Source of the DNA: Alphaproteobacteria bacterium
Lineage (GTDB): Bacteria; Pseudomonadota; Alphaproteobacteria; JAAEOK01
DNA: 64,000 nt
Reading direction: 5' to 3'
NCBI GenBank assembly: GCA_024244705.1
Contig: JAAEOK010000042.1
Location: 88,764 to 152,763 of the forward strand
The stretch's first letter is position 1. The number at the start of each line of letters is the position of its first letter. Below, one piece after another: positions 38,922 to 55,084 of this stretch. The position numbers were made by a program, and so were the translations under genes. The notes beneath the pieces were generated by a model. The model searched no databases and was not told the origin of the DNA. It saw only the letters and a program-made list of their open reading frames with translations.

Positions 38922-39063
38922 TGCTGAATCCGTTTGGTTGTTCAGATCTCCGGGAGCGCTGTTTTAGCCGAACCGTTCCGCAATTTCATAGGGTTTTTGC
39001 GAACCGACAGCGACTTCTGATCTGACTTGGCAGCGGCCTCGGGACGTGTCGTGGCCAAGCCGG

Positions 39064-39642
39064 TCAATCGGCCTTATCGCGAATGACCTTCTTTATTTCC
39101 TGCCTGACCAACCGCTCGACCAAGTCGGGGAGGTTTTCGTCGAGCCATGCTTTGAGCATCGGCCGCAACGACGAGCCGACCAATTCCTCGATCGTCATAT
39201 CCGCCGTCATCGCGGACCTAAGCTGTGAGCTCGAATTTTCCGATCCTTCCCGTCCGGCCATGGTACCGGCCAATCTACTGACCGCTTGGGAGGTTGCCGA
39301 CGCGACGTCTTCCCTATTGACGGCGTCGGAGGACTGCGCCGACGGATTGGGACGGGCTTCGCCACGATCCTCGTCGACACGGTGCGGGCTTGATGGCGAG
39401 AGCCGCCCAGATTGGGCACTATCGGAGGACTCGATTGCGGCATCATCTTTGGCGGCGATGCGGCGGTCTCGCTCGACCACTTCGGTCGAAAGCAGCACGT
39501 CGTCGTCGATCGGAGAAGGCCCTTCGGTCGTGCAATCACGACCCTTGACCTGGCACGGCTTATCGCTGTCCGCCGTTACAATGCGTCGAATCGAAGCGAG
39601 AATCTCCTCCATCGATTCGGTGTCGTCGGCGCGATCCTTCAT
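39064..39642 (-). CDS. DUF2497 domain-containing protein
   Basis: Conserved N-terminal MEEILASIRRIV and C-terminal LRPMLKAWLDENLPDLVERLVRQEI segments with a low-complexity middle. Conserved tolC-DUF2497-valS arrangement of alphaproteobacteria. Confidence 0.7.
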   Translation of the reverse strand: MKDRADDTESMEEILASIRRIVTADSDKPCQVKGRDCTTEGPSPIDDDVLLSTEVVERDRRIAAKDDAAIESSDSAQSGRLSPSSPHRVDEDRGEARPNPSAQSSDAVNREDVASATSQAVSRLAGTMAGREGSENSSSQLRSAMTADMTIEELVGSSLRPMLKAWLDENLPDLVERLVRQEIKKVIRDKAD

Positions 39643-39700
39643 GCTAGGACAATACCGCAATAACGTCTTGCAAGCCGTTGAAATATAATTCGGTTATACT

Positions 39701-41101
39701 CTAATCCGTAACGCCTGAATCGAGATCATCGCCAAGACCCCACCATTTGTCCCGGACCTCGTCGTAGTAGATCTGGGAATCATAGTAGGGCACGTCGAGG
39801 CCGAGTTGAGGAGCGGTCAGGCGGCCGATCGCCGACAAAAGATTATAGGAGGCGACCACTTCGTCGCGCCGCGCGCCGACCAGATTGACCCGGGCATCCA
39901 AATTTTCCTGCTCCGCATCGAGCACATCGAGGACCGTCCGCAGGCCGGCCTGCGCCTCCTCTTGGACGCCTTCGAGGGCGAGCGCGGTCGCGTCAGCCTC
40001 CTCCTCGAAAGCGAGGACCTGAGCGCGCGAAGTCAGGAAGTTCTCCCAAGCCTGGGTCGCCACCTCCACCGCGGCGCGTTTCGCTTCGGCGATCTCCATG
40101 CGGCGTTGGCTCACGACTTGCTTCGATTCCCGCACTCTCGAAGTCACGGATCCGGCCTGATAGATGGGAATCGTAACGGTCGCACCAATCGACGCCGATT
40201 CCGCCTCCGACGTACCCGGTGCCGGATTGTCCGCGTAACTAAGGACTCCATCCAGGGAAACCGACGGCAGCAACTCGCCAAAGACGAGGTCGACCGTATC
40301 CCGCGCCGCCGCCTCACGGTAGAGCGCCGAGACCACTGTCGGGTTGTGTGTCGCGGCCAAATTGTTGACTTCGACAACGTCCGGCGGCAGATCGTCATAG
40401 GGTAGCGGCTGTTCCAATACGCCCGGCGGCACCCCGATGACCTGCACAAAATCGGCGCGGGAGATCTCCAAATTACCTTCGGCGGCAACACGGTCGGCGA
40501 TAGCGCGGGCCAACCGGGACTCGGCTTGGGCGACATCGGTTCGTGTCACCTCTCCGACTTCGAAGCGATCACGGGTCGCCTCGAGCTCGCGCCGCAAAAC
40601 TTGTTCGTTGTTGATATTGAGTTCGAGTACCGCTTGATCCCGCAGCACGTTCATGAACGCGGTCACGGCGTCGAACAGCACCTGCTGCTCGGTCGTCACC
40701 AAATCGGCACGTCCGGCCCGAACGAGGTTCTCGGCTTGATCGGTTTGCGCCTCGGTCCGGAAGCCGCGGAACAGCGGCTGCGATACGCTCAGCGAGACGC
40801 CGGCCTCCAGGTTATCGCCCTTCGCCGTCACCCCGCCCATCACCGTGCGGGCATACTCCTCCGCCAGATTGCCGGTCGCCGTAACGGTGGGGCGCCAATT
40901 AGAGAGCGCCTGCGGTACTTGTTCGTCGGTCGACCGCAGCTGGGCGCGCTGTGCCAGCAGAGTGGGGTTGCTGAGATACGCCAGGGCCAAGGCCTCGTAC
41001 AGGGTCTGAGCATTCGCCGACCCGCCGGCCCCAAACAGGACCAGCGCGATCGCCACAACAGCACGGCAAAATCCGCCCCTGATCGCAGCCTGCGCCCTCA
41101 T
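39701..41101 (-). CDS. tolC: TolC family outer-membrane efflux protein
   Basis: Signal peptide. Repeated OEP coiled-coil/beta-barrel halves. Confidence 0.85.
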   Translation of the reverse strand: MRAQAAIRGGFCRAVVAIALVLFGAGGSANAQTLYEALALAYLSNPTLLAQRAQLRSTDEQVPQALSNWRPTVTATGNLAEEYARTVMGGVTAKGDNLEAGVSLSVSQPLFRGFRTEAQTDQAENLVRAGRADLVTTEQQVLFDAVTAFMNVLRDQAVLELNINNEQVLRRELEATRDRFEVGEVTRTDVAQAESRLARAIADRVAAEGNLEISRADFVQVIGVPPGVLEQPLPYDDLPPDVVEVNNLAATHNPTVVSALYREAAARDTVDLVFGELLPSVSLDGVLSYADNPAPGTSEAESASIGATVTIPIYQAGSVTSRVRESKQVVSQRRMEIAEAKRAAVEVATQAWENFLTSRAQVLAFEEEADATALALEGVQEEAQAGLRTVLDVLDAEQENLDARVNLVGARRDEVVASYNLLSAIGRLTAPQLGLDVPYYDSQIYYDEVRDKWWGLGDDLDSGVTD

Positions 41102-41172
41102 AATGTTCTCTCCCCCATTCTGATTGCGCAGTTTAGCATGGCGAACGATAAACGCACGCCGGAACTCTTAGG

Positions 41173-41832
41173 TCAGAACGTGAAACTGGCCGGCTTCCGG
41201 AACCCGGGAAGCAGATGGATCGCGGCGTCGAAGACGGTTCGATGCCATATCCTTCCGGCCTCTTTCAGGAACAATGTGGCGCGCCCGACGCCGCCCCCGC
41301 CGTCCGAGATCACGGCGGCGGCCCGGCCATTCTCGCCGAGCTGATCGAAATACACCGCCGGCACTTCGTCGACGGCGCCGTCGAACAGAATGACTCCGAA
41401 GGGTCCTTGCGCCGGGCAGCCGTCGGTTAGCGGGCCCTCGACCACGACGGCGTTATCAATGCCCAAAGCGACCAGAGCGTCATTCGCTTTTCGAGCCAGG
41501 GCCGGGTCGGATTCCAGCACAACAACCGTGGTGCAGATGTCTGCGAGCACCGCCGCGGAATAGCCGGTCGCCCCGCCCACGACGAGTGCTATTTCGGACG
41601 CCTCGGGAGACATTTCCTGCAACAAGCGCGCCAATACCATCGGTTCCATGAGGTAGCGGTCACGATCGATGGCGATATCCTCGTCAACATAGGCAATGCT
41701 GCGCATCGACTCGGGAACGAAATTCTCGCGCGGCACCTTGGTCAGGGCCTCGACAATCGCCGGATCGTTGACCTTGTTGGTCCGAATCTGACATTCGACC
41801 ATATGCTGACGAGCAATCGTGTAATCGGACAT
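41173..41832 (-). CDS. protein-L-isoaspartate O-methyltransferase family protein (second PIMT paralogue)
   Basis: SAM-MTase motif ALVVGGATGYSAAVLA and PIMT-like N-terminus. Start at MSDYTIARQHM. Commonly adjacent to tolC in alphaproteobacteria. Confidence 0.75.
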   Translation of the reverse strand: MSDYTIARQHMVECQIRTNKVNDPAIVEALTKVPRENFVPESMRSIAYVDEDIAIDRDRYLMEPMVLARLLQEMSPEASEIALVVGGATGYSAAVLADICTTVVVLESDPALARKANDALVALGIDNAVVVEGPLTDGCPAQGPFGVILFDGAVDEVPAVYFDQLGENGRAAAVISDGGGGVGRATLFLKEAGRIWHRTVFDAAIHLLPGFRKPASFTF

Positions 41833-42002
41833 ATGCCGATCTCCCTTGGACGAATAAGACCGCCCACGTCGATGGGCGCGAGACGAACATCCTGGGCGTT
41901 TATAGTCCCGCAATTCGGTGGATACAACGCCCCTCGGGCAAAGCCGCCTTGACCGGATGGCGCGCACTCCCTATACCACGGCGCGACTTTTCCCCACCCT
42001 CC

Positions 42003-42076: not shown

Positions 42077-42413
42077 GTCGTGCGAAAACCGCTGATCGAT
42101 AGCCCGAAATCAAAATCCGTGTGCGCCATCGCTGGCGCGAAATCGGACGCACACGAGGGGCGTTGTCGACGATACGGATTCCCGGCGGGGTCTCCGGTTC
42201 ATTGCCTCCGCCTGTTGCGCAAATCCGCAAGACCTCCCGCGCATGGAAGGTAAACCGCTCGGTGGCGCAACCGAGTGGCGCGACACGACTTGGCTGCCCG
42301 GTCCAGGGGCGACAAGAGGACTTGGCTTTCCCCAGCGGGCTGTGACAACATAAGCCGGTGGTGCGTTGATCGATGGTGTGGTTGCCGACAACCTCAGAGG
42401 GGGGCAAACAGCC

Positions 42414-43619
42414 ATGGCGAAGGCAAAATCATCACGTTATAGTCCAATTCGCAGGCTCGGCCTGACCGGCCCGCGGGCCAGAATCGAAGTCGCCACCTCG
42501 GCGGAGGATCGCCTGCCGGAAGACGATTCGCCCGATTTCACCCTGTCGCTGCCCGCGCATCCGCAATTGAGCGATACCGATATGGCCGCGCTGCGCCGCC
42601 AAGGTCTCGAGCAAGAGCTGCGGGCGCTCAAGGATGAAGAGAAGCTGGCGAAAAAGATCATGCGGCTTCAGGACGGTTTCAGCAAGAAGGTCGCGCAGAC
42701 CGTCGGCCTACAGGCCTGGTCCGCATTACGTGCCGAGATCATGCGTGACCGGGCCAGGCTCCACCGCCTGCGGCTCAGCGATACGGCGACCGGTACGACG
42801 GATGAGGACGAAGACGAAAAACGCCGCGCGGCGGCGGCCGATCGCTACGAGGCCGCGCTGCGCCGCGCCGGTTTAGATTCCGCCGACCTTCGTCAGGCGA
42901 CGACGGGCTACCGGAAAGCGCTCGGCGCTGCGTTCGCGGGGGCCGCCGCTCCCGACCCATCTATCCAGATGATTTCCCGCGAGTGGGGCCTGCCAACCGG
43001 CGAACCTCAAGACACGCGCCAGATATGGGACAGTTTCTTCTACCACCGGACACGAACCCAAAAGGGTGGCGATCGGGATCTGTTACAACCGTTTGTCGAG
43101 GCCAATCGGGAGACCGGCAGGCTCCGCGTCGACCATGTCTGGGAAAACCATGATTCCGGCAACGCCGATGCCTTCTGGTTCTGGGGCACGAGTCAGTTGG
43201 GCGAGGTGCTTTGGCTGAATGCCGGCGAATCTTTCTCGCTCGAGGTCACCATCCGGTGCGTTCACACGGTCTACGAGGTCTTTGGCAAGGACGAGTGGGG
43301 TTGGTCGGATGCCTATTATTCCGGCCGTACGATTCTACTGATCGAGGTCGGGCCCCATCAGCACCGAGCCGACATCTGGGCCCATTCTGGCGGCACCGTC
43401 GGGCATCGGCTCATTACCCCGGTGGCCCAGGGTGAGGTGCGCACCTTTCGTATCGATAATATCGGTCCAATCGCAGCCGGCGGTTTCTACATCGTTTGGT
43501 CGGGGCTGCGCCAAATCCAGTGGAGCGAACAGAACGACTTTTCGCTCAATATCTTGCACCGCGACCGGTGGAAGCTGGTCAGCGTGAAAGTCATTCAACG
43601 GGCCAATCAGCGGCCATAA
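42414..43619 (+). CDS. hypothetical protein (coiled-coil/charged N-terminal half plus Trp-rich C-terminal domain). No recognisable family.
   Basis: Long ORF with normal local GC. Start assigned to MAKAKSSRY. Confidence 0.45.
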   Translation: MAKAKSSRYSPIRRLGLTGPRARIEVATSAEDRLPEDDSPDFTLSLPAHPQLSDTDMAALRRQGLEQELRALKDEEKLAKKIMRLQDGFSKKVAQTVGLQAWSALRAEIMRDRARLHRLRLSDTATGTTDEDEDEKRRAAAADRYEAALRRAGLDSADLRQATTGYRKALGAAFAGAAAPDPSIQMISREWGLPTGEPQDTRQIWDSFFYHRTRTQKGGDRDLLQPFVEANRETGRLRVDHVWENHDSGNADAFWFWGTSQLGEVLWLNAGESFSLEVTIRCVHTVYEVFGKDEWGWSDAYYSGRTILLIEVGPHQHRADIWAHSGGTVGHRLITPVAQGEVRTFRIDNIGPIAAGGFYIVWSGLRQIQWSEQNDFSLNILHRDRWKLVSVKVIQRANQRP

Positions 43620-43631
43620 CTCGCGGCCAGT

Positions 43632-44270
43632 TTATCTCTCGAGGACGACCTTGACCTCGTGGCCCGAGACCGTGTTCTCGAACTGAACCAGTTCTTTCTT
43701 CGTGTTAAACCATAAAGATGCCTTCCAACTGCCTGTAAAATCGAATCTTTCCGTCTCAATTGATTGTTTATCGGATTTCAGGGTTTCGTTCTTTTTCGAT
43801 ACCGAAACCTGCCAGACCGATAGGTCCTTCATGTCGAAAATCGCCGATGCCGTGGTAATGCCGTAGTGCCAGAACGCGCTGGGAAACGCGGTCACGGGAA
43901 GCTCCACCGGTTTGCCGTTCAGGGTGGCCTCGTATCCCGACTTGGTCCGTTTCACCGTGGCCTCGTATTTGGTCCCGTCATCGTCGGTTTCGGCGTGCAT
44001 GGATTGCAGCTCTCCGTCCTCCCAGTCTTCGTGGATCGTTTGCGTGAAACTGTAGACATCGATGCCGAGCACGGACATCGATGCATTCGATTTCAGGGTC
44101 TCGACATCATCGTTATCTCCGCGCGTCTCGGTAAGGTGGATTTGGCCAACCTTGTCGTCATCGATATAAACCGACGCGAAGAAGTTCGCCGCTTTGGCGG
44201 TATCCGCGCCGGCGTCATGGGGCATGACCAAGGTGACCGTAGTCGCGAACAGCAATGCGAAGAGTCTCAT
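43632..44270 (-). CDS. hypothetical secreted protein (signal peptide, beta-rich). Markedly lower GC than the surroundings.
   Basis: Signal peptide MRLFALLFATTVTLVMPHDAGA. AT-richer codon usage is visible. Confidence 0.45.
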   Translation of the reverse strand: MRLFALLFATTVTLVMPHDAGADTAKAANFFASVYIDDDKVGQIHLTETRGDNDDVETLKSNASMSVLGIDVYSFTQTIHEDWEDGELQSMHAETDDDGTKYEATVKRTKSGYEATLNGKPVELPVTAFPSAFWHYGITTASAIFDMKDLSVWQVSVSKKNETLKSDKQSIETERFDFTGSWKASLWFNTKKELVQFENTVSGHEVKVVLER

Positions 44271-44367
44271 CACCGGATATCCTCCTATGTTGCCTGCTCG
44301 GCCGGCCCTAAACCGCCCTGATTTGTCCGCCGGGGCAGCACCACGGTTTCGCCCTCCGGGCCCGAGT

Positions 44368-45339
44368 TCAATTCGAGACATCGTAAGCCTCGACTGCGTC
44401 GGTCAGCGAAATCACCGTCCGAGCGCCGGCCTCCTCGCCCCCGCCGACAACATACCACCGGCTGCCGACGATGGCCGAGGTCAGGCCGTGCCGGGGAGTC
44501 GGCATATCCGCCTGGGTCGACCATGTGTCGGTCTCGGGGTCGTAGACCTCATGCGCGGCAAAGGTCCATCCGGGCGAGAACGCCTCACCGCCGGTGACGT
44601 GAAGCCGACCGTCCAAAGCCCCGGCCGCAAGCCCGCCTCGCGGCGTCGGCATGTCCGCCGCCCCACGCCATCGATCCGTCACCGGGTCGTAGATTTCGAG
44701 TGTTGACCGGTTGCCGGCGCCAAATCCGCGGCCACCGACGACATAGAGTTCGCCGCCGAGGACCGCCGCGCTCAGGTGCTCGCGCGCGGTTGGAAGCGGA
44801 GCTCGCGACGTATCCCAGATTCCCGTCTGCGGATCGAAAACCTGCATTTTCCGATGCTCGGGCCCGACGCCACCGACCACGAACAGCTTGCCATCCAGCG
44901 CCGCCATGGCGTGGGCGGCTCGGGGCAGCGGCATCGGCGGTTCTTCGCGCCAACGCCTGGTCTGGGGGTCATAGGAGAACATCGCCGTTCGATCGGGATC
45001 GAAAGCAATGCTGTCGTAGCCGCCGGTGACGTAAATCCTGCCGGCCAATCCGGCCATGCCGAGATGATGCAGGGTTTCGGGCATCGCCGGCAGCTCTTCC
45101 CAAGATTCCGACCGAGGATCGAAGGCCTCGAAAGTCGCCGTGGTGCCGAACAGGGTCAGACCGCCGCCGACATAGATCCGGTCACCCACGACCGCCGCCG
45201 CGATTTCCGACTGGGCGGTCGACATTTGCGGCGCGGTGGCCCATTCGCCCGCAGCCGCCGATCCCACGGCCGCGGCAAATACGAATTGGCAGAGCACACC
45301 GGCACGAAACAAAGACATGCCCGGATCATAGTTCGCCAT
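44368..45339 (-). CDS. Kelch-repeat (galactose-oxidase-like beta-propeller) protein, secreted
   Basis: Signal peptide. About 6 Kelch-like blades (repeated GG...YV.GG, W...P.P.PR motifs). Confidence 0.7.
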   Translation of the reverse strand: MANYDPGMSLFRAGVLCQFVFAAAVGSAAAGEWATAPQMSTAQSEIAAAVVGDRIYVGGGLTLFGTTATFEAFDPRSESWEELPAMPETLHHLGMAGLAGRIYVTGGYDSIAFDPDRTAMFSYDPQTRRWREEPPMPLPRAAHAMAALDGKLFVVGGVGPEHRKMQVFDPQTGIWDTSRAPLPTAREHLSAAVLGGELYVVGGRGFGAGNRSTLEIYDPVTDRWRGAADMPTPRGGLAAGALDGRLHVTGGEAFSPGWTFAAHEVYDPETDTWSTQADMPTPRHGLTSAIVGSRWYVVGGGEEAGARTVISLTDAVEAYDVSN

Positions 45340-45494
45340 GTCGCGATTGTCGCGATCGGCGTGACGGAGAGTCCCGTTCGGCAATCGCAATCGGCAGCCA
45401 CCACCGGGCCCGACGGTGTTGCCAACGCAGCCGCCGCCCTGCTATAAGGCCGCGCCGTCAACGGCCGTATTGCGGACGGTCGATTTCGACCTGA

Positions 45495-45570
45495 TCCCCG
45501 GTAGCTCAGTTGGTAGAGCGGGTGGCTGTTAACCACCATGTCGCTGGTTCGAGTCCGGCCCGGGGAGCCA
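45495..45570 (+). tRNA. tRNA-Asn (anticodon GUU)
   Basis: Acceptor TCCCCGG/CCGGGGA, anticodon loop CUGUUAA, GGTTCGAGTCC T-loop, CCA encoded. Followed by a GC-rich segment plus T7 run (likely terminator). Confidence 0.9.
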
Positions 45571-45865
45571 ACCAATCTAGGGCGTTGGGCAGCCGAGCTC
45601 AGCCCTTTTTTTGATTCCTGCGTAAGGGCCGACCGGCCCATCCTGCCGGATCTGAACCGACTTTCGCTCCAACTGCCATGTTTGCTACGCTACCAATGGT
45701 CGCACATGGTCATGCGGGGAAATTCGGATCCATGAACGATTGTTCTCAGTAAGTTACGAATGTTGCGGTCGAGACGCCGGCCAGACAGTCACGAAAGACA
45801 CCATCGGCGAGGACTGGTCAAAATGCTGAACGATCGTCGCGTAAGAGTGTAAGGGGGAAGCCGCC

Positions 45866-47575
45866 ATGGAATTCATCGATCGCATTTTCGATGCGGCGCC
45901 CATATTGGCGATCTTCGTCACGATTGCCGTCGGCTTCTCGATCGGAAAGCTGACGATCGGAAAGTTCGTGCTCGGCGGAATTGCCGGCACCTTGATCGCC
46001 GGTGTCGTGATCGGACAGCTCGACGTCAAAGTCGATGACAACCTCAAGAACATCTTCTTTGCGTTATTTATCTATGCCGTCGGCTATCAGGGCGGCCCGC
46101 AATTCTTCCATGCCCTCAACCTGCGCACGCTCAACCAGCTCGCGTCCGCCGCCGTCATGTGCATCGTTGGATTGCTCTGCGTGCTTGCCGCGGCGTGGAT
46201 GTTCGATCTCGACCGCGGAACGGCGGCCGGCCTAGCGGCCGGTGGGCTGACCCAATCGGCGATCCTCGGCACGGCGGGCGATTCCCTGGCCAAGCTCAAC
46301 GTTTCGCCGGAGCTGATCAAGGCGATGCAAACCAATCTCGCGGTCGGCTATGCGGTCTGCTACATCTTCGGCAACCTGGGTCCGATCATCATGGTTACCT
46401 GGTTCTTCCCGACGATCATGAAGTGGGACATCCGGCAGGAGGCGCTCAAACTCGCCAAGGATATGTCGGGGGGCCGGGCCGAAATCGAGCCGGGGCAATT
46501 CAACATGGCCGTTACCGTAACGACTCGGTTCTATGAAGTCACCGGCGACGGCAAGGCAAACGGCAAGACGGCGCTCGAGATCGACGGCGCGCTTTCCGAC
46601 GCTGCCGTCGAAGTATTGCTTCGGGACGGCAAGAAGATCGAGTTCGACAACGACTCCAAGGTCATGGCGGGCGATATCGTCGGAATCACCGGAAAGGTCC
46701 CTGTCCTGGAATCGGCAAGCGATTATTTCGGCCACGAAGTCGTCGCCCCGGATGATTTCGAACTGGTCGAGGAACAGCGCCACGTGGTTTTGACCAACCG
46801 CAAGCTCCACGGCCGGACGATCAAGCAATTGCACGACCATGTCGGCGTCGAAACTCGTCACGGCGTGTTCGTGGTCGGCGTCAATCGCATGGGCCGGCAC
46901 CTCCCCCTCTATCCCAACCTCGAATTGCATACCGGCGACGAGATGCGCCTGATTGGCCGCACCAAGGACCTCGATCGCGTCCAGTCGCAGATCGGGTACA
47001 AGATCTCTGCGGCAGCGATTACCGATTTCATCTTCTTCGGCATCGGAATGGGGATTGGCGTCCTCCTCGGCATGCTCCAGTTCAAGGTCGCCGGCATCCC
47101 GGTGACGATCGGCGCCGGCGGCGGCTGTCTCCTGTCGGGGCTGTTCTTCGGCTGGCTGCGCAGCGTCCACCCGCGTTTCGCCGCGCTGCCGATGGGGGCG
47201 TCGAATTACCTCCGCGATTTCGGCCTCGCCGTCTTCGTCGGCGTCGTCGGCCTGACCGCGGGGCCCCAGGCTTTGGTCACCTTGGAGCAATACGGCCTGT
47301 TGTTGCTCTTTCTCGGTGCCGGCGTGACCCTGATTCCGCAGCTCATCGTTTTCCCCTTCTCCTATTTCGTCCTGCGCATCAGAAACCCGATCGAGGCCCT
47401 CGCCTGCGTCGCCGGCGGACGCAGCGCGAACCCCACTTTCGCCGCCCTGCTGGCGAAGGCCGGCAACGCGACGCCGGTCGTTACGTTTACCGTGACCTAT
47501 GCGGTCGCCAACGTATTGCTCACATTGTGGGGGCCGCTCATCGTCGGCTTCATTACCACCAATCCCGCCCCATAG
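45866..47575 (+). CDS. aspT: aspartate:alanine antiporter (AAE family, AspT/YidE/YbjL-like) with two central TrkA_C (RCK_C) domains
   Basis: Duplicated 5-6 TM halves flanking two RCK_C-like domains. Adjacent to asdA. Confidence 0.8.
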   Translation: MEFIDRIFDAAPILAIFVTIAVGFSIGKLTIGKFVLGGIAGTLIAGVVIGQLDVKVDDNLKNIFFALFIYAVGYQGGPQFFHALNLRTLNQLASAAVMCIVGLLCVLAAAWMFDLDRGTAAGLAAGGLTQSAILGTAGDSLAKLNVSPELIKAMQTNLAVGYAVCYIFGNLGPIIMVTWFFPTIMKWDIRQEALKLAKDMSGGRAEIEPGQFNMAVTVTTRFYEVTGDGKANGKTALEIDGALSDAAVEVLLRDGKKIEFDNDSKVMAGDIVGITGKVPVLESASDYFGHEVVAPDDFELVEEQRHVVLTNRKLHGRTIKQLHDHVGVETRHGVFVVGVNRMGRHLPLYPNLELHTGDEMRLIGRTKDLDRVQSQIGYKISAAAITDFIFFGIGMGIGVLLGMLQFKVAGIPVTIGAGGGCLLSGLFFGWLRSVHPRFAALPMGASNYLRDFGLAVFVGVVGLTAGPQALVTLEQYGLLLLFLGAGVTLIPQLIVFPFSYFVLRIRNPIEALACVAGGRSANPTFAALLAKAGNATPVVTFTVTYAVANVLLTLWGPLIVGFITTNPAP

Positions 47576-47597
47576 ACCGGCGTAGAGAGGACATCCC

Positions 47598-49193
47598 ATG
47601 TCGGAGCACGATTACAGCCAGTTCGCCGATTTGAGTCCGTTCGAACTAAAGAACAAGCTGATCGAGATCGCCTCGACCGACTCGGAACGCATGATGCTGA
47701 ACGCCGGTCGCGGCAATCCGAACTTTCTCGCGACCCTGCCGCGGCGCGCCTTCCTGCGCCTCGGTGACTTTGCCCTCCAGGAGGCCGAGCGGTCCTACGC
47801 CTATCTGGACAGCGGTTACGGCGGCCTGCCGGAGCGGACGGGGATCGTCGAAAGGTTTCATGCCTACGCCCATCACCACCTGGACACCGAGGGCGTACGC
47901 TTTCTGGAATCGGCGGTCTCCTACGTTCGCGATCAGATGGGGCTGGATCGCGAGGGCTTCCTCTTCGAGGCGGTTGGCGCGTTCCTCGGCTGCACCTATC
48001 CGACCCCGCCGCGCATGCTTCGGCACTGCGAAGAGATCGTGAAAGCCTACCTTTCGAAGGAGATGTATGGCCAGAAAGCCCGAGGCGGGGACTTCTCGCT
48101 GTTCGCCACGGAAGGCGGAACGGCGGCGATGACCTACATATTCCAAACCTTGCGGGAGAATAGGCTGATCGCCCCGGGCGAGAAGATCGCCCTGGGCACG
48201 CCGATCTTCTCGCCTTACCTGGAGATACCGCCGCTCGCCGACTATCAGTTGGAAATCGTCGATGTCCGGATGGATGAGGATGCCGACTGGCAATACCCCG
48301 AAGCCGAGTTGCGAAAGCTCGAGGATCCGGCGATCAAGTTCCTTTGCGTGGTCAATCCGAGCAACCCGCCGTCGGTGAAGATCTCGAACACCGGACTGGA
48401 CCAAATCTCAAAACTGATCGCCACCAAGCGTCCTAATCTCATTGTCGTTACCGACGATGTCTATGGGACCTTCGCGGACAATTTCGTTTCGCTGTTCGCG
48501 ACCTGCCCGCGCAACACGCTGTGCGTTTACTCGTTCTCCAAATATTTCGGCGCGACCGGATGGCGGCTCGGCGTCATCGGATTGCACGAGGACAACGTGC
48601 TGGACGACGCGCTGGCGGCGCTGCCGGAGGACTCGAAGAAGGCGCTCGATGCGCGCTATTCATCGCTGACCACCGAGCCGCGGGCCTTACGCTTCATCGA
48701 TCGCCTGGTTGCCGACAGCCGAACCGTCGCGTTGAATCATACGGCTGGACTTTCGGTGCCGCAGCAATTGCAGATGATGCTATTCGCGCTCAACGGGTTG
48801 ATGGATCGGGGCGACCGCTACAAGAATTCGGCCAAGGCACTCATCCGCGACCGTTACCGGACCCTGTGGGAGAATATGGGGCTTGACCCCCATCGCGAAC
48901 CGGATGACGTCAACTATTACACGTTGATCGACCTGCAGAAGCTCGGCGAAAAACTCTACGGCAAGGCGTTCGCAACCTGGTTCCGCAAGGGCAACAAGGG
49001 CACCGACTTCCTCTTTCGCTTGGCCAAGGAGACCGGTGTCGTGTTGTTGCCGGGCAAGGGCTTCGAGGTCGTCGATTCGTCGGCGCGCGTGTCGCTGGCG
49101 AACCTGACAGAAGCCGATTACATCGCGATCGGATCGCTCGCCCGAAAGGTGCTCGACGAGTACCACGCCGATTTCGAGCAGGGAGGCGCTTGA
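47598..49193 (+). CDS. asdA: bifunctional aspartate transaminase / L-aspartate 4-(beta)-decarboxylase
   Basis: About 530-aa fold-type I PLP enzyme with PLP-Lys context SFSKYFGATGWRLG. Paired with aspT as in the described Asp decarboxylation/antiport operon. Confidence 0.8.
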   Translation: MSEHDYSQFADLSPFELKNKLIEIASTDSERMMLNAGRGNPNFLATLPRRAFLRLGDFALQEAERSYAYLDSGYGGLPERTGIVERFHAYAHHHLDTEGVRFLESAVSYVRDQMGLDREGFLFEAVGAFLGCTYPTPPRMLRHCEEIVKAYLSKEMYGQKARGGDFSLFATEGGTAAMTYIFQTLRENRLIAPGEKIALGTPIFSPYLEIPPLADYQLEIVDVRMDEDADWQYPEAELRKLEDPAIKFLCVVNPSNPPSVKISNTGLDQISKLIATKRPNLIVVTDDVYGTFADNFVSLFATCPRNTLCVYSFSKYFGATGWRLGVIGLHEDNVLDDALAALPEDSKKALDARYSSLTTEPRALRFIDRLVADSRTVALNHTAGLSVPQQLQMMLFALNGLMDRGDRYKNSAKALIRDRYRTLWENMGLDPHREPDDVNYYTLIDLQKLGEKLYGKAFATWFRKGNKGTDFLFRLAKETGVVLLPGKGFEVVDSSARVSLANLTEADYIAIGSLARKVLDEYHADFEQGGA

Positions 49194-49408
49194 CCACTCG
49201 TCAACACCGCGGCCGATGGCCGCATGGCTGGGTCGTTTCTTCTTGGCGAGGTCGTGGCGTTCAAATGGCTGCAATCACCGGCCAGACCGTCCGCGCGCCG
49301 CGGTTTGCGGCGACCCGCCTCCCGCCTCAGAATTTGCTGCTCTTGCTTAGAATACAATACCTGCAATCTCCTTTGTTCAAGACATACGGAGAATAATGCA
49401 ACGTCGAG

Positions 49409-50237
49409 GTGCGGGCCCATGACAACGTCGGCCAAGAAACCGCTTCCGACCTCGCCTCTCAATCGGGCAATCTCATAACTGACATGACCCGGAAAACCAA
49501 ATCTCCGGCGCGCGCGGAACTGCCTTTCGTTGCCGGCGCCATCACCGCAGCGATCATGCTTTCCGTCGGTGATTATTGGTTCGCCGACATTCGCAACCCC
49601 GCGCTCGCCCTGGCCCTGTTCGTCTGGATTTTCGTGGCCATGCTGTGGGGTGCTTTTGGCGTCGTGCGCCATGCCGACGCGCTCGCCGAGCTGCTCGGCG
49701 AACCGTTGGGCACCTTGATCCTGACGCTTTCTGTTATTGGCATCGAAGTGTCCCTGATCACGGCGATCATGTTGGCCGGTGACGGCGCTCTGTCCTCTAC
49801 CATGCGGTATTCCTGGTCTTGACCATGGTGCCGATCGTGTTGCTGTCGAAAAAACTCGCCACACTGGTCGACTTTGCCGTCGACTCATGGCAGCTTCCGG
49901 TTGGATTGAGCGGAATTCTCATCGCCCTGCTGGTCCTCGCGCCGGAGGGCGTCAGCGCGCTCAAAGCGGCGCTCGCGAATCAACTGCAGCGCTCGGTCAA
50001 CATCTGCCTGGGATCATCGCTCTCGACCATCGGCATGACCGTGCCGGCGGTCGTTGCGATCGCTCTTATCACCGATCAAAAGTTGGTTCTGGCCTGTCAC
50101 CCGTCGCCATAACACTGCTGGTTTTGACGCTCCTGGTCTCGACGATCACGTTCAGCGGGCGACGTACCAACATGCTGCAGGGCGCCGTGCATATGGTTCT
50201 TTTCCTGATCTATGTCGTTTTGACGATCCGGCCTTAG
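49409..50237 (+). pseudogene. chaA: decayed Ca2+/H+ (CaCA family, ChaA-like) antiporter gene: internal deletion plus 1-nt frameshift
   Basis: Three consecutive ORF fragments in different frames (49409..49822, 49819..50112, ...50237) each matching successive ChaA regions (alpha-1 repeat GEPLGTLILTLSVIGIEVS, alpha-2 repeat IIALLVLAPEGVSALKAALANQLQRSVNI, C-terminal NMLQGAVHMVLFLIYVVL). About 150 aa of the middle is missing. Confidence 0.6.
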
Positions 50238-50297
50238 GAATCGCCGCCACCATCGGCGACCGGACACGATCGAACAGCCCATTCGACGCCCAAAAGC

Positions 50298-51260
50298 CTA
50301 CGCGGCGGGACGGTCCGGATAGTGGTGGGCGTAGAGGCAGAGGAACTCGACCGCCAGCGTCGCCGCCGTCAGCGCGGTAATCTCCCCGACGTCATAGGCT
50401 GGCGCCACCTCGACCACATCCATGCCGACCAAATTTATGCCCTGCAAGCCGCGCACGATCTCGAGCGCCTGGAACGACGTCAGACCCCCGGAGACCGGGG
50501 TGCCGGTACCGGGCGCATAGGCGGGGTCGAGGCAATCGATATCGAATGTCAAATAGCAGGGAGACTCGCCGACGATGCGCTTTATTTCGGCGATCACGGC
50601 CTCGATCCCGTTGTAGTGCACCCACCGCGCGTCGAGGATGTTGAAACCGCGCGTGTCCTCGTTGGTCGTTCTCAACCCGACTTGCACCGAACGCGACGTT
50701 TCGACGAGCCCTTCCCGGGCGGCATGGAAAAACATCGTCCCGTGATCGGCCCGGTCGTCCTCATCGGTCCAAGTGTCCGAATGGGCGTCGAAGTGGATCA
50801 GCGACAAGGGTCCATGTTTGCCGACATGCGCCTTGAGTAGTGGATAAGTAATGAAGTGGTCGCCGCCCAGGGTCAGGACTGCCGTGCCTTGCTCGATGAT
50901 GGTCCGCGCATGCTGTTCGATGGCGCCCGGGACCGTTTCCGGGCGTCCATGATCGAAGGCGCAGTCGCCATAATCGACCACCGCCAAACGGTCGAAGGGA
51001 TCGAAGGCGCTAGGCCAGATTCTTGGCCATGTAAGCTCCGTCGACGCGGCGCGGATCGCGCGCGGTCCGAAACGGGCGCCGGGGCGGTTGGTGGTCGCGG
51101 TATCGAGCGGCACGCCGGTGACCGCGACGTCGACCCCCTCGAGGTCCTTGCTGAAGCGGCGGCGCATGAAGCTCAGCCCGCCGGCATAGGTTGGTTCGGA
51201 AACCGTTCCGTAGAGATCGGTCCGCGTGAAGGCATGGTCGTTGCGGTGCTTCTGCGGCAT
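50298..51260 (-). CDS. speB: agmatinase / ureohydrolase family (arginase fold)
   Basis: Mn-binding motifs GGDHFITYP, DAHSDT, SFDIDCLDP. Confidence 0.8.
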   Translation of the reverse strand: MPQKHRNDHAFTRTDLYGTVSEPTYAGGLSFMRRRFSKDLEGVDVAVTGVPLDTATTNRPGARFGPRAIRAASTELTWPRIWPSAFDPFDRLAVVDYGDCAFDHGRPETVPGAIEQHARTIIEQGTAVLTLGGDHFITYPLLKAHVGKHGPLSLIHFDAHSDTWTDEDDRADHGTMFFHAAREGLVETSRSVQVGLRTTNEDTRGFNILDARWVHYNGIEAVIAEIKRIVGESPCYLTFDIDCLDPAYAPGTGTPVSGGLTSFQALEIVRGLQGINLVGMDVVEVAPAYDVGEITALTAATLAVEFLCLYAHHYPDRPAA

Positions 51261-51410
51261 TAATTCGCGTATTCCCTGGCTGATTTTCTGAGCCGGAGAC
51301 TACCATTGTTGAGACATGACTGGCAGTTGGAATCGACCCACACGAACCGACTTCGCTTAGAAACAACTGTCTGGGATTTGTGCCGGCGCGGCCGCCGGCC
51401 GGGACGCGAT

Positions 51411-51746
51411 CTATTTAAGGCAGCTCTTCACGATGTTTATGCACGGTGTCGGCGGGCCGAACAGACGGCGTTCCAGTCCCTCATAGGCGACGTGTTCGAC
51501 ACGGTCCCGGTAAATCGTGAAATCGGCCTGGCAGGTAAAGGCAAAATCGCCGTGCATTTCGGTTCGAACATAGGTGAGCGTCTCTTTCGCTGCGCCATAG
51601 GCGTCGCGGGTTGGAAGTCCTGCGCAATCGAGCAATTCGGATTTCTTCATGCCCAACATTTGCGTCCTCGCCGTCTGCGTCTCATCGACGCTAAGGCTGC
51701 ACGCCGACAGAATACAGGCCGCACCAAGCACGAAACTCCTAACCAT
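51411..51746 (-). CDS. small lipoprotein, BamE/SmpA-OmlA-like
   Basis: Lipobox LSAC. Motif GMKKSELLDCAGLP resembles the BamE domain. Confidence 0.4.
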   Translation of the reverse strand: MVRSFVLGAACILSACSLSVDETQTARTQMLGMKKSELLDCAGLPTRDAYGAAKETLTYVRTEMHGDFAFTCQADFTIYRDRVEHVAYEGLERRLFGPPTPCINIVKSCLK

Positions 51747-51916
51747 TCCGGCCACCCACGTTATCCGATTCCAGGCGCCCGCGACCCGATGTCACAGGCA
51801 TTCTGTCCAATAGTGGTAGATAACCCTAAAGCTTTGATTAATCTTGGCATGTCGAGTAAGTTGCGCGGCGTCCTCCCCAGGGCACCCGAGCAACCAAACC
51901 CATGAGCTGATATCCG

Positions 51917-52438
51917 ATGCCACACCAAGCTGTGCCCCCCGTGCGGTTAATTGCGTTCACATTGCTCCTTACGATACTGGTTTTTGCTTTCGGCGCCCGC
52001 GCCCAGCAACAGCCCCTCGAACCCGAAGCGACGTTTGACGATTGGGCCAAGGCCTGTGAGGAAATCCCTCAAGGCGGCCGAAAGTGTTTCGTGTTCCAAA
52101 ATGTTACGACTCAGGACGGAACGCGGCCGATCGTCACCCTGACGGTTCTCAAGGTACCCGAAGCCGCGCGGCCGATTCTCCTGCTTACGGTTCCGCTCGG
52201 CGTCTTCCTGCCGCAGGGATTGGGCATGAGCATTGACGGCAATGAGCCGCTGCGCATACCGCTTCAGATCTGTTCACCCAACGGCTGCCAATCGCAATTC
52301 GAATTTCCGGACAAGCTGCTCGGCGCCTTCAAGGCGGGCAACAACGGGACCGTAAAAATGTTCGATCCGGGCGGAAAGGAAGTAAACGTTCCGTTTTCGC
52401 TCAAGGGCTTTACCAAGGCCCTGGCCTCGATCAGTTAG
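51917..52438 (+). CDS. invasion-associated locus B (IalB) family protein, secreted
   Basis: Signal peptide. IalB-like length and conserved Cys pair (CSPNGCQ). Confidence 0.65.
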   Translation: MPHQAVPPVRLIAFTLLLTILVFAFGARAQQQPLEPEATFDDWAKACEEIPQGGRKCFVFQNVTTQDGTRPIVTLTVLKVPEAARPILLLTVPLGVFLPQGLGMSIDGNEPLRIPLQICSPNGCQSQFEFPDKLLGAFKAGNNGTVKMFDPGGKEVNVPFSLKGFTKALASIS

Positions 52439-53604
52439 CCGGAAGCCGTGCCCTCCGCGTCGGCTTGAAGTGGGAACGGTTCGGCCTCGCCCATCGGCCA
52501 TTTCTCCACATAAACCGACTGGGATGGAAACGCGAAGCCGGAACCGGCGCCTTCGACTATTGTTTTGATCTTGAATGCGAAATCCTGCTTGACGTCGAGC
52601 CATTCCGCCCAGTTTGTCGTCTTGGTAAAGCAATAGATCATAATATTGATGCTCGAATCGGCGAACTCGTCGACGAAAACCAGGGTCGACACCCGCTCCG
52701 GATCCGTCTCGAACGCATCGGTGTCGTGAATGTGGTCGCGGATCTGGTGCACGATCGTGCGGAGTTGGTCCTGTGTGGTCCGGTATTCGACGCCGACCTT
52801 CCAGTAAATGCGGCGATTCGTCATTTTCGAGTAGTTGATGATCGGCTCGTTGGTTAGCAGACTGTTTGGCACCGTCACCAGCGCCTTGTCGAATTGCCGG
52901 ACGCGGCTCGCAATCAAGCCTATCTCCTCGACGACGCCCTCTAGGTGGCTGGTCTGAATCCAATCGCCACGATCGAAAAGCTTGTTCATGAAGATCATGG
53001 TGCCGCCGAAAAGGTTGGCGATCATGTCCTTGGCACCGAGCGCGAACGCCATGCCGGCCAGACCGAGACCGCCCAAGACGGCGGCCACGTTGAACCCCCA
53101 TTCCTGCAGCACGGCCGCGATGCCCAAGATTACGATCAACACTTTGAGTATTTTTACGGCAAACGCGTGCAAGGTCTCCTGCGCCGTCAATGGCGTTCCC
53201 AATTGCGCCAGGACCCGGTCGATAAGGTAGGAAAACGGCTCCACCATCAGGAACAGAGCCCAGAATATGGTGAAAATTATCAGCACACGGATCAGGCTGT
53301 GGACCCAGTCCCCGGTATCGACCGAGCCCGACACGACCTGGACCGCCACGTACAGGCCGAGAACGAGAAACGCGAACTGAACCGGCTTTTCGAGAGCATC
53401 GACGAACATGTTGTCGATTCTGGTGGACGTTCTATCCGCCAACCGACGCATCGCCTTGAGGATCACTCGGGTAAAGAATCCGCGGGTCACCGAAAACAGG
53501 AAAAAGACCAAAACCGCGGCAAGAATCGGACCCAAGCTGACCCCGAAGACACCGGCTTTCCAGACCAATGCGACCTGCTGCCAGAATCCTTCAAGAATAT
53601 CCAT
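52435..53604 (-). CDS. mechanosensitive ion channel family protein (MscS-like)
   Basis: MscS TM3-like GLGLAGMAFALGAKDMIANLFGG plus beta-domain. Start at MDILEGF. Confidence 0.8.
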   Translation of the reverse strand: MDILEGFWQQVALVWKAGVFGVSLGPILAAVLVFFLFSVTRGFFTRVILKAMRRLADRTSTRIDNMFVDALEKPVQFAFLVLGLYVAVQVVSGSVDTGDWVHSLIRVLIIFTIFWALFLMVEPFSYLIDRVLAQLGTPLTAQETLHAFAVKILKVLIVILGIAAVLQEWGFNVAAVLGGLGLAGMAFALGAKDMIANLFGGTMIFMNKLFDRGDWIQTSHLEGVVEEIGLIASRVRQFDKALVTVPNSLLTNEPIINYSKMTNRRIYWKVGVEYRTTQDQLRTIVHQIRDHIHDTDAFETDPERVSTLVFVDEFADSSINIMIYCFTKTTNWAEWLDVKQDFAFKIKTIVEGAGSGFAFPSQSVYVEKWPMGEAEPFPLQADAEGTASG

Positions 53605-53825
53605 CACATCACCCAAAAAAACACGGCGCGAGGTTGCGTCGGGCTGTACAATCGAGGCGACGTGTGAATAATCGTTTTTGCCCGTGGCCGCAACACGCGG
53701 CCGTTCCTGCAGCACGAGCCAGACGTTGCCCTTGTCACGAATTTGTCCCACCGAAGGGGCAAACTCGCTTGATAGGGCTAGTCTGTTCTATCACCAGAAC
53801 GGCGATTTCTAGGCAGGGGACCCGT

Positions 53826-54350
53826 ATGTTCAATAAGTCAAAGCAAAACAACAGCGAGCCCGCAACTCCGCGGCCCGCAGTACCCGAATCGACACCAACG
53901 ACGAAAGCGGAAAGCCCGGCCCCGGCACCCAAGCCGGTGGCCAATGTTGCTTCGGCATCGTCGATTATCAGTGCGGCGCTTAACGTCACCGGCAACCTTG
54001 ACTGTGCCGGCGACATCGAGATCAAGGGCACCATCGATGGCGACGTTAAGGCCCGCAACGTGCGTATCGACGAAAGCGGAAAGGTAAAGGGCAAGATCGT
54101 CGCCGATTCGGCGTATGTCGATGGCACGGTGCGTGGCCAAATTGTGGCCAAGAACGTGGCCTTGGCGGGATCGGCAAATGTCCGTGGCGATATTCTTCAC
54201 GAGTCGCTGTCGATCGAGGCTGGCGCTTTCCTCGATGGCAACTGCCGACGCCTGAAGGAGGCTGACCAAGCGGCCGATCAGCCGCAGAAGGAAAGGAAAG
54301 AGCCGGCGAAGCCGGCGGCAACAAATATGGCTGCCGCACCCGCAGGTTAG
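53826..54350 (+). CDS. bactofilin family cytoskeletal protein
   Basis: Beta-helical repeat signature (NVTGNLDCAGDIEIKGTIDGDVKA..., KGKIVADSAYVDGTVRGQIVA...). Pro-rich N-terminus. ATG at 53826. Confidence 0.75.
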   Translation: MFNKSKQNNSEPATPRPAVPESTPTTKAESPAPAPKPVANVASASSIISAALNVTGNLDCAGDIEIKGTIDGDVKARNVRIDESGKVKGKIVADSAYVDGTVRGQIVAKNVALAGSANVRGDILHESLSIEAGAFLDGNCRRLKEADQAADQPQKERKEPAKPAATNMAAAPAG

Positions 54351-54478
54351 AACCGTTTTCGGACTCTCTGGGTCACGCCGATAGCTGTGACCAATGTCAT
54401 TTCAGTGTCGCGCCCTTTCGTGCTAAAGAAGGCGCTCAAATACCATTTGTCCAAAGCAGAACGGGATAGAGGGTCCTC

Positions 54479-54952
54479 ATGAACACGCTCGCAAAACGAT
54501 CCACGACACTCGCCACCGCCGTGATTGTGCTTGGCGCCGTGACAGCCTGTCAGAATGTCGGAACGAAGACGCAAGTTGGTGCCGCGGGTGGCGCCGCCGC
54601 TGGCGGCCTGCTGGCAGCGGCGACCGGAACCGGGGCGGCCGGCATCGCCGCCGGCGTTCTACTCGGCGGCCTCGCCGGCGGCGCGATCGGCAACATGCTC
54701 GACCAGCGCGACCAGGAAATGGCGGCGCAAAGCACCCAGCAAGCCTTGGAGAGCGGCCAGACCGGTCAACAGACCCAGTGGGTGAATCCGGACAGCGGCC
54801 ATAGCGGTACCGTACAGCCGACCCGCACCTACCAGACGTCGAGTGGACAGTACTGTCGCGACTTCCAGCAGACAGTCACGGTCAATGGCCGGACCGAAAC
54901 CGCCACCGGCACCGCCTGCCGGCAGGCCGACGGTACCTGGCAGGTCGTTTAG
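54479..54952 (+). CDS. lipoprotein with glycine-zipper (Gly-zipper_2TM) region and 17-kDa-surface-antigen-like C-terminus
   Basis: Lipobox AVTAC. GxxxG-rich segment AAGGAAAGGLLAAATGTGAAGIAAGVLLGGLAGGAIG. Confidence 0.6.
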   Translation: MNTLAKRSTTLATAVIVLGAVTACQNVGTKTQVGAAGGAAAGGLLAAATGTGAAGIAAGVLLGGLAGGAIGNMLDQRDQEMAAQSTQQALESGQTGQQTQWVNPDSGHSGTVQPTRTYQTSSGQYCRDFQQTVTVNGRTETATGTACRQADGTWQVV

Positions 54953-54997
54953 GGAGGGCCGGGAGCAGCTGGCGCCTCCTTGCCGGTAACTGCCGGT

Positions 54998-55045
54998 CCC
55001 CAATCTCAGATTTGGGGATGTCCTGTGCGATTTCGGGACATCCCC
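54998..55045 (+). promoter_or_regulatory. two interlocked stem-loops (CCCCAAT..ATTTGGGG and GGGGATGTCC..GGACATCCCC) between the lipoprotein gene and the CHASE2 cyclase gene. Terminator or 5' regulatory structure.
   Basis: Perfect 10-bp inverted repeat plus an adjacent 6-7-bp inverted repeat sharing the GGGG. No U-tract. Confidence 0.3.
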
Positions 55046-55084
55046 AATTCGTTCCGTTGACACCCAAGCAGCCAAAATAGGGCC

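Follow-up and report, generated by a model that had tools for sequence, protein, structure and literature searches.

We describe here the gene pair aspT-asdA in a stretch of 64,000 nucleotides, in the following called the window, from the genome of an uncultured alphaproteobacterium (assembly GCA_024244705.1, contig JAAEOK010000042.1, positions 88,764 to 152,763). The pair encodes an aspartate:alanine antiporter of the AAEx family (TC 2.A.81; aspT, 569 aa, positions 45866-47575 of the window, + strand) and a bifunctional aspartate transaminase/aspartate 4-decarboxylase (EC 4.1.1.12; asdA, 531 aa, 47598-49193, + strand), and it is surrounded by chromosomal core genes. Both genes are intact and tightly linked, their identities are clear, and the pair is conserved across phyla. 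It is very probable that they form an intact chromosomal operon running an aspartate/alanine proton-motive cycle, which is an accessory trait in this organism. The operon is thus an ordinary, intact copy of a known and already annotated two-gene module, and an initial annotation, read from the sequence only, had recognised this textbook decarboxylation-antiport module. It adds one further host lineage, a poorly sampled alphaproteobacterial metagenome-assembled genome (MAG), to an already very widespread family, which as such matters little; the value of the present analysis lies in a clean annotation and in locating the pair within a variable segment that is bounded by tRNA-Asn and an agmatinase gene.

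The gene aspT starts with an ATG that has the ribosome-binding site GGGGGA 6-11 nt upstream, and the ATG of asdA is preceded by GAGAGGA. The two genes are separated by only 22 nt, and this gap together with the ribosome-binding sites fits a single aspT-asdA transcript. The two-gene operon of an exchanger and a pyridoxal 5'-phosphate (PLP) enzyme of about 530 aa, as proposed initially, is therefore found with 569 and 531 aa, respectively. Profile matches run from end to end in both proteins, covering positions 2-561 of 562 for AspT and 3-526 of 530 for AsdA, so that neither of them is truncated or frameshifted. No terminator was recognised 3' of asdA, where shuffled sequence folds equally well (z -0.4). 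Long antisense open reading frames (ORFs) extend over both genes, e.g., at 46232-47599 on the - strand, and match no protein family themselves. They are the usual by-product of DNA with 60% GC, the sense frames having a GC content at third codon positions (GC3) of 0.80-0.82.

AspT reaches 656.2 bits on the equivalog model TIGR03802, named "aspartate-alanine antiporter" in NCBIfam, which is well above the cut-off of 546.95. The models for the paralogues YbjL (NF003440) and YidE (NF003007) were tried as alternatives and failed, with 254 bits against a cut-off of 645 and 181 bits against 449, respectively. In its architecture AspT resembles these paralogues, as a duplicated PF06826 and a loop with a TrkA_C domain are common to all of them; unlike YbjL and YidE, the window AspT is linked to asdA and stays below the cut-offs of their models. 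The membrane repeats are matched by two stretches of PF06826 (Asp-Al_Ex) and two stretches of TIGR01625, which are located around the soluble domain. The initial annotation had assigned two RCK_C domains to this exchanger. One TrkA_C/RCK_C domain is indeed present above the Pfam threshold (residues 307-376, E 5e-10), whereas a second TrkA_C stretch appears at a permissive E-value only, and BLASTP revealed no similarity between the two halves of the soluble loop that would point to an internal duplication.

Residues 6-561 of AspT align with the structures of AspT from Tetragenococcus halophilus (9VEB, 9OQY/9VDC, 8XW5, 8Y1X; E ~1e-63). In the T. halophilus protein, the side chains of T130, S132, Y167, L431, T496, and S498 contact L-aspartate (PMC12462496). 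Four of these six contacts, T130, S132, Y167, and L431, are kept in the window AspT as T129, S131, Y166, and L454, respectively. Moreover, the HP1 motif GLTQSA, Y162/Y166, and L454/F457 are conserved with T. halophilus, and HP1, Y166, and L454 are invariant among the AspT proteins compared. The HP2 motif (residues 517-523 of the window AspT, encoded at 47414-47434), in contrast, is GGRSANP here and GADTLSA in T. halophilus. GGRSANP is common to the window AspT and all eight orthologues with 55-69% identity, which come from asdA-linked loci, in part those of Gram-negative bacteria, and is therefore a feature of this clade and not a decay of the window copy.

The identification of AsdA is similarly clear, since the protein exceeds the cut-offs of two equivalog models, NF006755 (772 bits vs. 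321) and TIGR03801 (736.6 bits vs. 435.1). The identity of an ordinary aminotransferase was considered and rejected: the best other family reaches 78.8 bits, and the aspartate aminotransferase models reach 35-49 bits. Profile comparison had been suggested initially as a check on both family assignments, and all three cut-offs concerned (TIGR03802, NF006755, TIGR03801) are passed. Likewise, the findings named beforehand as speaking against these assignments, a transporter of the YidE/YbjL type and an ordinary aspartate aminotransferase, did not appear (254 of 645 and 181 of 449 bits for the transporter, and less than 80 bits for the enzyme). With its 531 aa, AsdA has an N-terminal extension that is absent from class I aminotransferases of ~400 aa, and PF00155 covers only residues 171-507. 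Full-length relatives of known structure are the Gram-negative aspartate beta-decarboxylases 2ZY2, 3FDD, and 2ZY3/2ZY4 (E ~1e-198). Residues 4-527 of AsdA can be aligned with residues 3-526 of 2ZY2 by BLASTP without any gap, with 57% identity over 523 residues. The proteins are of similar length (531 vs. 533-546 aa), and the PLP-lysine motif SFSKYFGATGWRLG (SFSK315YFGATGWRLG, K315) as well as NAGRGNPNF (R38) and the C-terminal R of SAR-VSLANL are identical in 2ZY2 and 3FDD. We take K315 to be the lysine that forms the Schiff base with PLP, and R38 and the C-terminal arginine to be active-site arginines. The Gram-negative enzymes, which have found industrial use, include the aspartate beta-decarboxylase of Pseudomonas dacunhae (PMC13631041). 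A further full-length match to AsdA is PDB 3F6T (E 6e-124), a 533-aa chain that is deposited as "Aspartate aminotransferase" and is probably an AsdA-family protein under a generic name.

The linkage of both genes is not restricted to the window. Twelve loci with DNA available upstream of asdA were compared, which belong to Hoeflea (four), Burkholderiaceae, Thermodesulfobacteriota, Dadabacteria, Catelliglobosispora, Bacteroidaceae, and three metagenome contigs, and in all 12 of them, thus in several phyla, aspT lies directly upstream of asdA on the same strand. The genes flanking the pair, in contrast, differ in every genome examined. Among 8000 candidates scored, at least 7998 are relatives of AsdA with E <= 1e-50, many of them annotated as "aspartate 4-decarboxylase", so that the trait is neither rare nor limited to lactic acid bacteria and Pseudomonas. 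The initial annotation had described it as best known from these two groups; as a trait occurring there it stands, as one special to them it does not. A 100% identical AsdA (P0001, from an Alphaproteobacteria bacterium MAG) is already present at NCBI under the same name, whereas an exact search for the AsdA sequence in a contig index gave no hit. One locus has an unusual arrangement: in Catelliglobosispora koreensis (L007, 8303-13386), asdA is accompanied by an aspT-like gene on each side, the products of which share 33% and 36% identity with the window AspT, and their HP2 motifs are neither of the GGRSANP type nor of the Tetragenococcus type.

The prototype of such a module is the operon of AspT and aspartate beta-decarboxylase in T. 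halophilus. There, the exchange of L-aspartate(1-) for L-alanine(0) and the proton-consuming decarboxylation generate a proton-motive force that is sufficient for ATP synthesis (PMC12462496; PMC13631041). The published model of AspT is a homodimer that works by an elevator mechanism. The cycle of electrogenic aspartate/alanine exchange and decarboxylation outlined in the initial annotation agrees with this Tetragenococcus mechanism. By analogy with the characterised homologues, the same transport stoichiometry, enzyme activity, and physiological benefit can be assumed for the pair in the window. AspT would then be a dimeric secondary transporter of the elevator type, taking up external L-aspartate, which carries one net negative charge, in exchange for internal L-alanine, which is neutral. 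The PLP enzyme AsdA would decarboxylate the imported aspartate at its beta position, using a cytoplasmic proton and forming L-alanine and CO2, and the alanine would leave the cell via AspT. As each turn would move one net negative charge inward and consume one internal proton, it would create a membrane potential as well as a pH gradient. This proton-motive cycle could drive ATP synthesis and buffer the cytoplasmic pH, and homology suggests that it may serve energy supply or acid resistance in this organism.

The operon in the window and that of T. halophilus share the same two protein families, their arrangement in one operon, and an alignment of AspT over its full length. They differ in their hosts, as the window belongs to an alphaproteobacterium, and in their settings, that of the window probably being respiratory and not fermentative. 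Furthermore, the Tetragenococcus operon is plasmid-borne and the one described here is chromosomal, and the two AspT proteins differ in sequence, above all in HP2. The same logic of precursor/product exchange coupled to a proton-consuming decarboxylation is also known from the oxalate/formate cycle of Oxalobacter formigenes. That cycle is cited as the prototype decarboxylation-antiport cycle (PMC12462496), but its protein families are unrelated to AspT and AsdA, so that the likeness is one of analogy only.

Several observations weigh against a proton-motive cycle in this host. Judged from gene content only, the organism is probably an aerobe living at neutral pH, for which a benefit in energy supply or acid resistance is less obvious than for a fermenting lactic acid bacterium. 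AspT is only ~27% identical to the characterised AspT of T. halophilus, and two of its six aspartate contacts are changed, T496 conservatively to S520 and S498 to N522; S498, like the retained L431, is described as less conserved (PMC12462496). Moreover, a promoter scan and an alignment of upstream regions revealed neither a promoter nor a regulator for aspT-asdA. The divergence of AspT could mean that the protein is an AAEx member for another substrate, exporting, e.g., succinate or glutamate, and that it lies beside asdA by coincidence. Transporters for both compounds do exist in the AAEx family (PMC12462496), and the HP2 residues are unlike those of T. halophilus AspT. Such a coincidence is nevertheless highly improbable, since the TIGR03802 equivalog cut-off is exceeded by >100 bits and the YbjL and YidE models fail, since HP1, Y166, and L454 do not vary, and since the adjacency to asdA recurs in each of the 12 loci across phyla.

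The purpose of the cycle is more debatable than the substrate. The same two genes might serve aspartate catabolism or nitrogen handling, with AsdA using both of its activities and AspT acting in uptake, in which case proton-motive force and acid resistance would be incidental. The NCBI name of the enzyme, a bifunctional transaminase/decarboxylase, would agree with this, as would the occurrence of the family in many aerobic Proteobacteria, Myxococcota, and Planctomycetota that are not acid-stressed fermenters. The nearby agmatinase also handles nitrogen derived from amino acids, though its synteny is with other genes rather than with the pair. However, neither carbon nor nitrogen would be kept if an obligate exchange exports all of the alanine, and the pairing of asdA with an exchanger instead of a symporter at every locus fits an energy cycle better, so that we regard a catabolic purpose as rather unlikely. 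A more far-reaching idea is that aspT-asdA is a self-contained cassette that crosses phyla and enters variable regions next to tRNA genes without a recognisable integrase, and that the GGRSANP type differs from the Tetragenococcus type in substrate handling or role; we consider this improbable. The preferred reading remains that of an aspartate/alanine proton-motive cycle.

The view of the pair as an accessory trait comes from the comparison with relatives. Close relatives of the host lineage are missing from the databases, as the next-best matches after the sequence itself share only 77% identity for AsdA, 76% for the agmatinase, and 68% for Pcm. Three metagenome contigs with the gene order of the window were found (L015, L017, and L018), which are short and distant, with 64-82% amino-acid identity in core genes. 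L015 covers the left side of the locus. It contains valS-DUF2497-tolC-pcm-tRNA-Cys, followed by three unrelated genes and tRNA-Asn, with identities of 77.5% for ValRS, 70% for the TolC-like protein, and 64% for Pcm. Its tRNA-Asn is 91% identical to that of the window, and the similarity ends at the 3' end of the tRNA. The following 1.57 kb up to the end of the contig are unrelated and contain a 155-aa ORF and a partial gene, and neither aspT nor asdA is present there. On the right side, six genes of L017 and seven of L018 have counterparts in the window, from the CHASE2 cyclase to the agmatinase (54-84% identity). Beyond the agmatinase gene, L017 continues with a cytochrome b561-like gene and L018 with a ring-hydroxylating dioxygenase gene, and neither chaA nor asdA is found at this site. 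L015 and L017 could not be joined into one locus, since the contigs do not overlap. Another contig, L019, was rejected as a syntenic relative: its agmatinase homologue shares 73% identity and is not in synteny. The interval between tRNA-Cys and tRNA-Asn also differs, comprising genes for a 417-aa protein, a DUF6134 protein, and a Kelch-repeat protein in the window (42077-45494) and a 258-aa ORF, an 82-aa ORF, and a PPK2 polyphosphate kinase gene in L015 (1645-3981). As the content of these contigs differs from that of the window, the two intervals, tRNA-Asn to agmatinase and tRNA-Cys to tRNA-Asn, are both variable. Since the former differs from the nearest, even if distant, relatives, the pair can be regarded as an accessory trait of the lineage that lies in a variable segment. 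This is compatible with a gain here as well as with a loss or replacement in the relatives. In the synteny check at tRNA-Asn proposed in the initial annotation, the module is missing from the 1.57 kb available 3' of the tRNA-Asn of L015, a result that covers short contigs from distant relatives.

From the position of the module between a tRNA gene and a decayed chaA, the initial annotation had suggested horizontal acquisition. A horizontal acquisition that is not recent is plausible. What speaks for it are the breaks of synteny at the 3' end of tRNA-Asn and at the agmatinase gene, whereas an integrase, an att repeat, and a compositional deviation were all missing. The last 16-30 nt of tRNA-Asn recur nowhere in the window, even with mismatches allowed. 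A search for att-like copies of its 3' end (16-36 nt, <=8 mismatches) yielded chance-level matches only, and a general search for direct and inverted repeats likewise remained at chance level and gave no relevant repeat family. No integrase or transposase domains were detected among the neighbouring proteins scanned. A megablast search of 45400-50300 against plasmids gave no match and hence no indication that the segment derives from a plasmid. The anticipated deviation in GC content and codon usage was not borne out: the GC content of the aspT-asdA segment is 0.57-0.65, like that of its flanks, in tetranucleotide usage the pair lies at an unremarkable distance from the window (z +0.55, rank 29 of 122), and the codon bias B of 0.247 and 0.236 is within the range of the window genes. 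Only GC3 is mildly elevated, with 0.82 for aspT and 0.80 for asdA compared to a window mean of 0.737 with a standard deviation (sd) of 0.042, which corresponds to ~+1.5 to +2 sd and to the top of the distribution. In a rough neighbour-joining tree of AsdA, calculated without bootstrap, Alphaproteobacteria, Betaproteobacteria, Myxococcota, and Planctomycetota are interleaved at a flat 70-73% identity, and this mixture indicates frequent transfer of aspT-asdA in general.

Alternatively, an ancestor may already have had the pair at this site and passed it on vertically, and the relatives would then have lost or replaced it. In that case, one would expect the unremarkable tetranucleotide distance and codon bias as well as the lack of an integrase, a transposase, or an att-like copy of the 3' end of the tRNA, and the relatives that were compared are distant, with the 64-82% in core genes given above. 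Vertical inheritance is more difficult to reconcile with the neighbours of the pair, which are different in every genome, with the mixing of phyla in the AsdA tree at 70-73% identity, and with the position of both genes at the top of the GC3 distribution. Moreover, the 3' end of tRNA-Asn, a classic insertion point, is exactly where the homology to L015 breaks off. An ancestral pair is therefore possible but doubtful, and an older horizontal acquisition is preferred here.

The gene for tRNA-Asn (anticodon GTT; 45495-45570, + strand), detected by ARAGORN and by Rfam RF00005 with 67 bits, is conserved and marks the left border of the variable segment. Next to it lie a hairpin at 45579-45607 (dG -16.1 kcal/mol, z -2.2 vs. 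shuffled sequences) and a run of seven T at 45606-45612. According to the terminator scan and the RNA fold, both together (45579-45612, + strand) plausibly constitute the intrinsic terminator of the tRNA-Asn gene. The spacer between tRNA-Asn and aspT comprises 295 bp (45571-45865), and the spacer of about 300 bp with a stem and a T7 run that had been described initially after tRNA-Asn was thus seen correctly. The remaining upstream region of aspT (45613-45865, + strand) is presumed to contain the promoter. No sigma-70-like site was found on the + strand of this region, and when the 240-nt regions preceding seven aspT genes, that of the window and six others, were aligned, neither an operator nor a promoter proved to be conserved. 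In a scan of 41.5-51.5 kb against Rfam at a permissive E-value, the two tRNAs were the only matches, so that the 295-nt spacer contains no known riboswitch or leader.

Downstream of the module lies a pseudogene of chaA (49484-50237, + strand), the remnant of a cation/proton antiporter gene according to matches with the ChaA profile. The decayed chaA remnant that had been noticed initially is hence real, as it consists of three collinear ChaA pieces in three frames, corresponding to profile positions 30-100 (49580-49792), 232-320 (49828-50094), and 321-362 (50094-50219). A deletion of ~130 profile positions (~390 bp) separates the first two pieces, and the frame changes at least twice. In no other locus examined is chaA found beside aspT-asdA, and therefore chaA did not travel with the pair.

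Upstream of the module, the window contains valS (36210-38921), genes for a PopZ-family/DUF2497 protein, a TolC-like protein, and Pcm, tRNA-Cys, and the genes for the 417-aa, the DUF6134, and the Kelch-repeat protein. The genes valS, PopZ-family (DUF2497), TolC-like, and pcm form a conserved block on the - strand (36210-41967), which is also present in L014 and L015; the match to PopZ is below the NCBIfam cut-off (105.7 vs. 125). The 417-aa ORF (42366-43619, + strand) is coding-like with a GC3 of 0.72 and has no match in Pfam or NCBIfam, and the genes for the DUF6134 and the Kelch-repeat protein, both on the - strand, overlap by 14 nt. Downstream of the chaA remnant, genes for agmatinase, IalB, MscS, bactofilin, a 17-kDa antigen-like protein, and the CHASE2 cyclase follow. 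The stretch 50500-55300, comprising agmatinase, IalB, MscS, and bactofilin, has the most deviant tetranucleotide usage of the window (L1 <=0.222 vs. a mean of 0.161, sd 0.016), and it is this stretch that is kept in synteny with L017 and L018.

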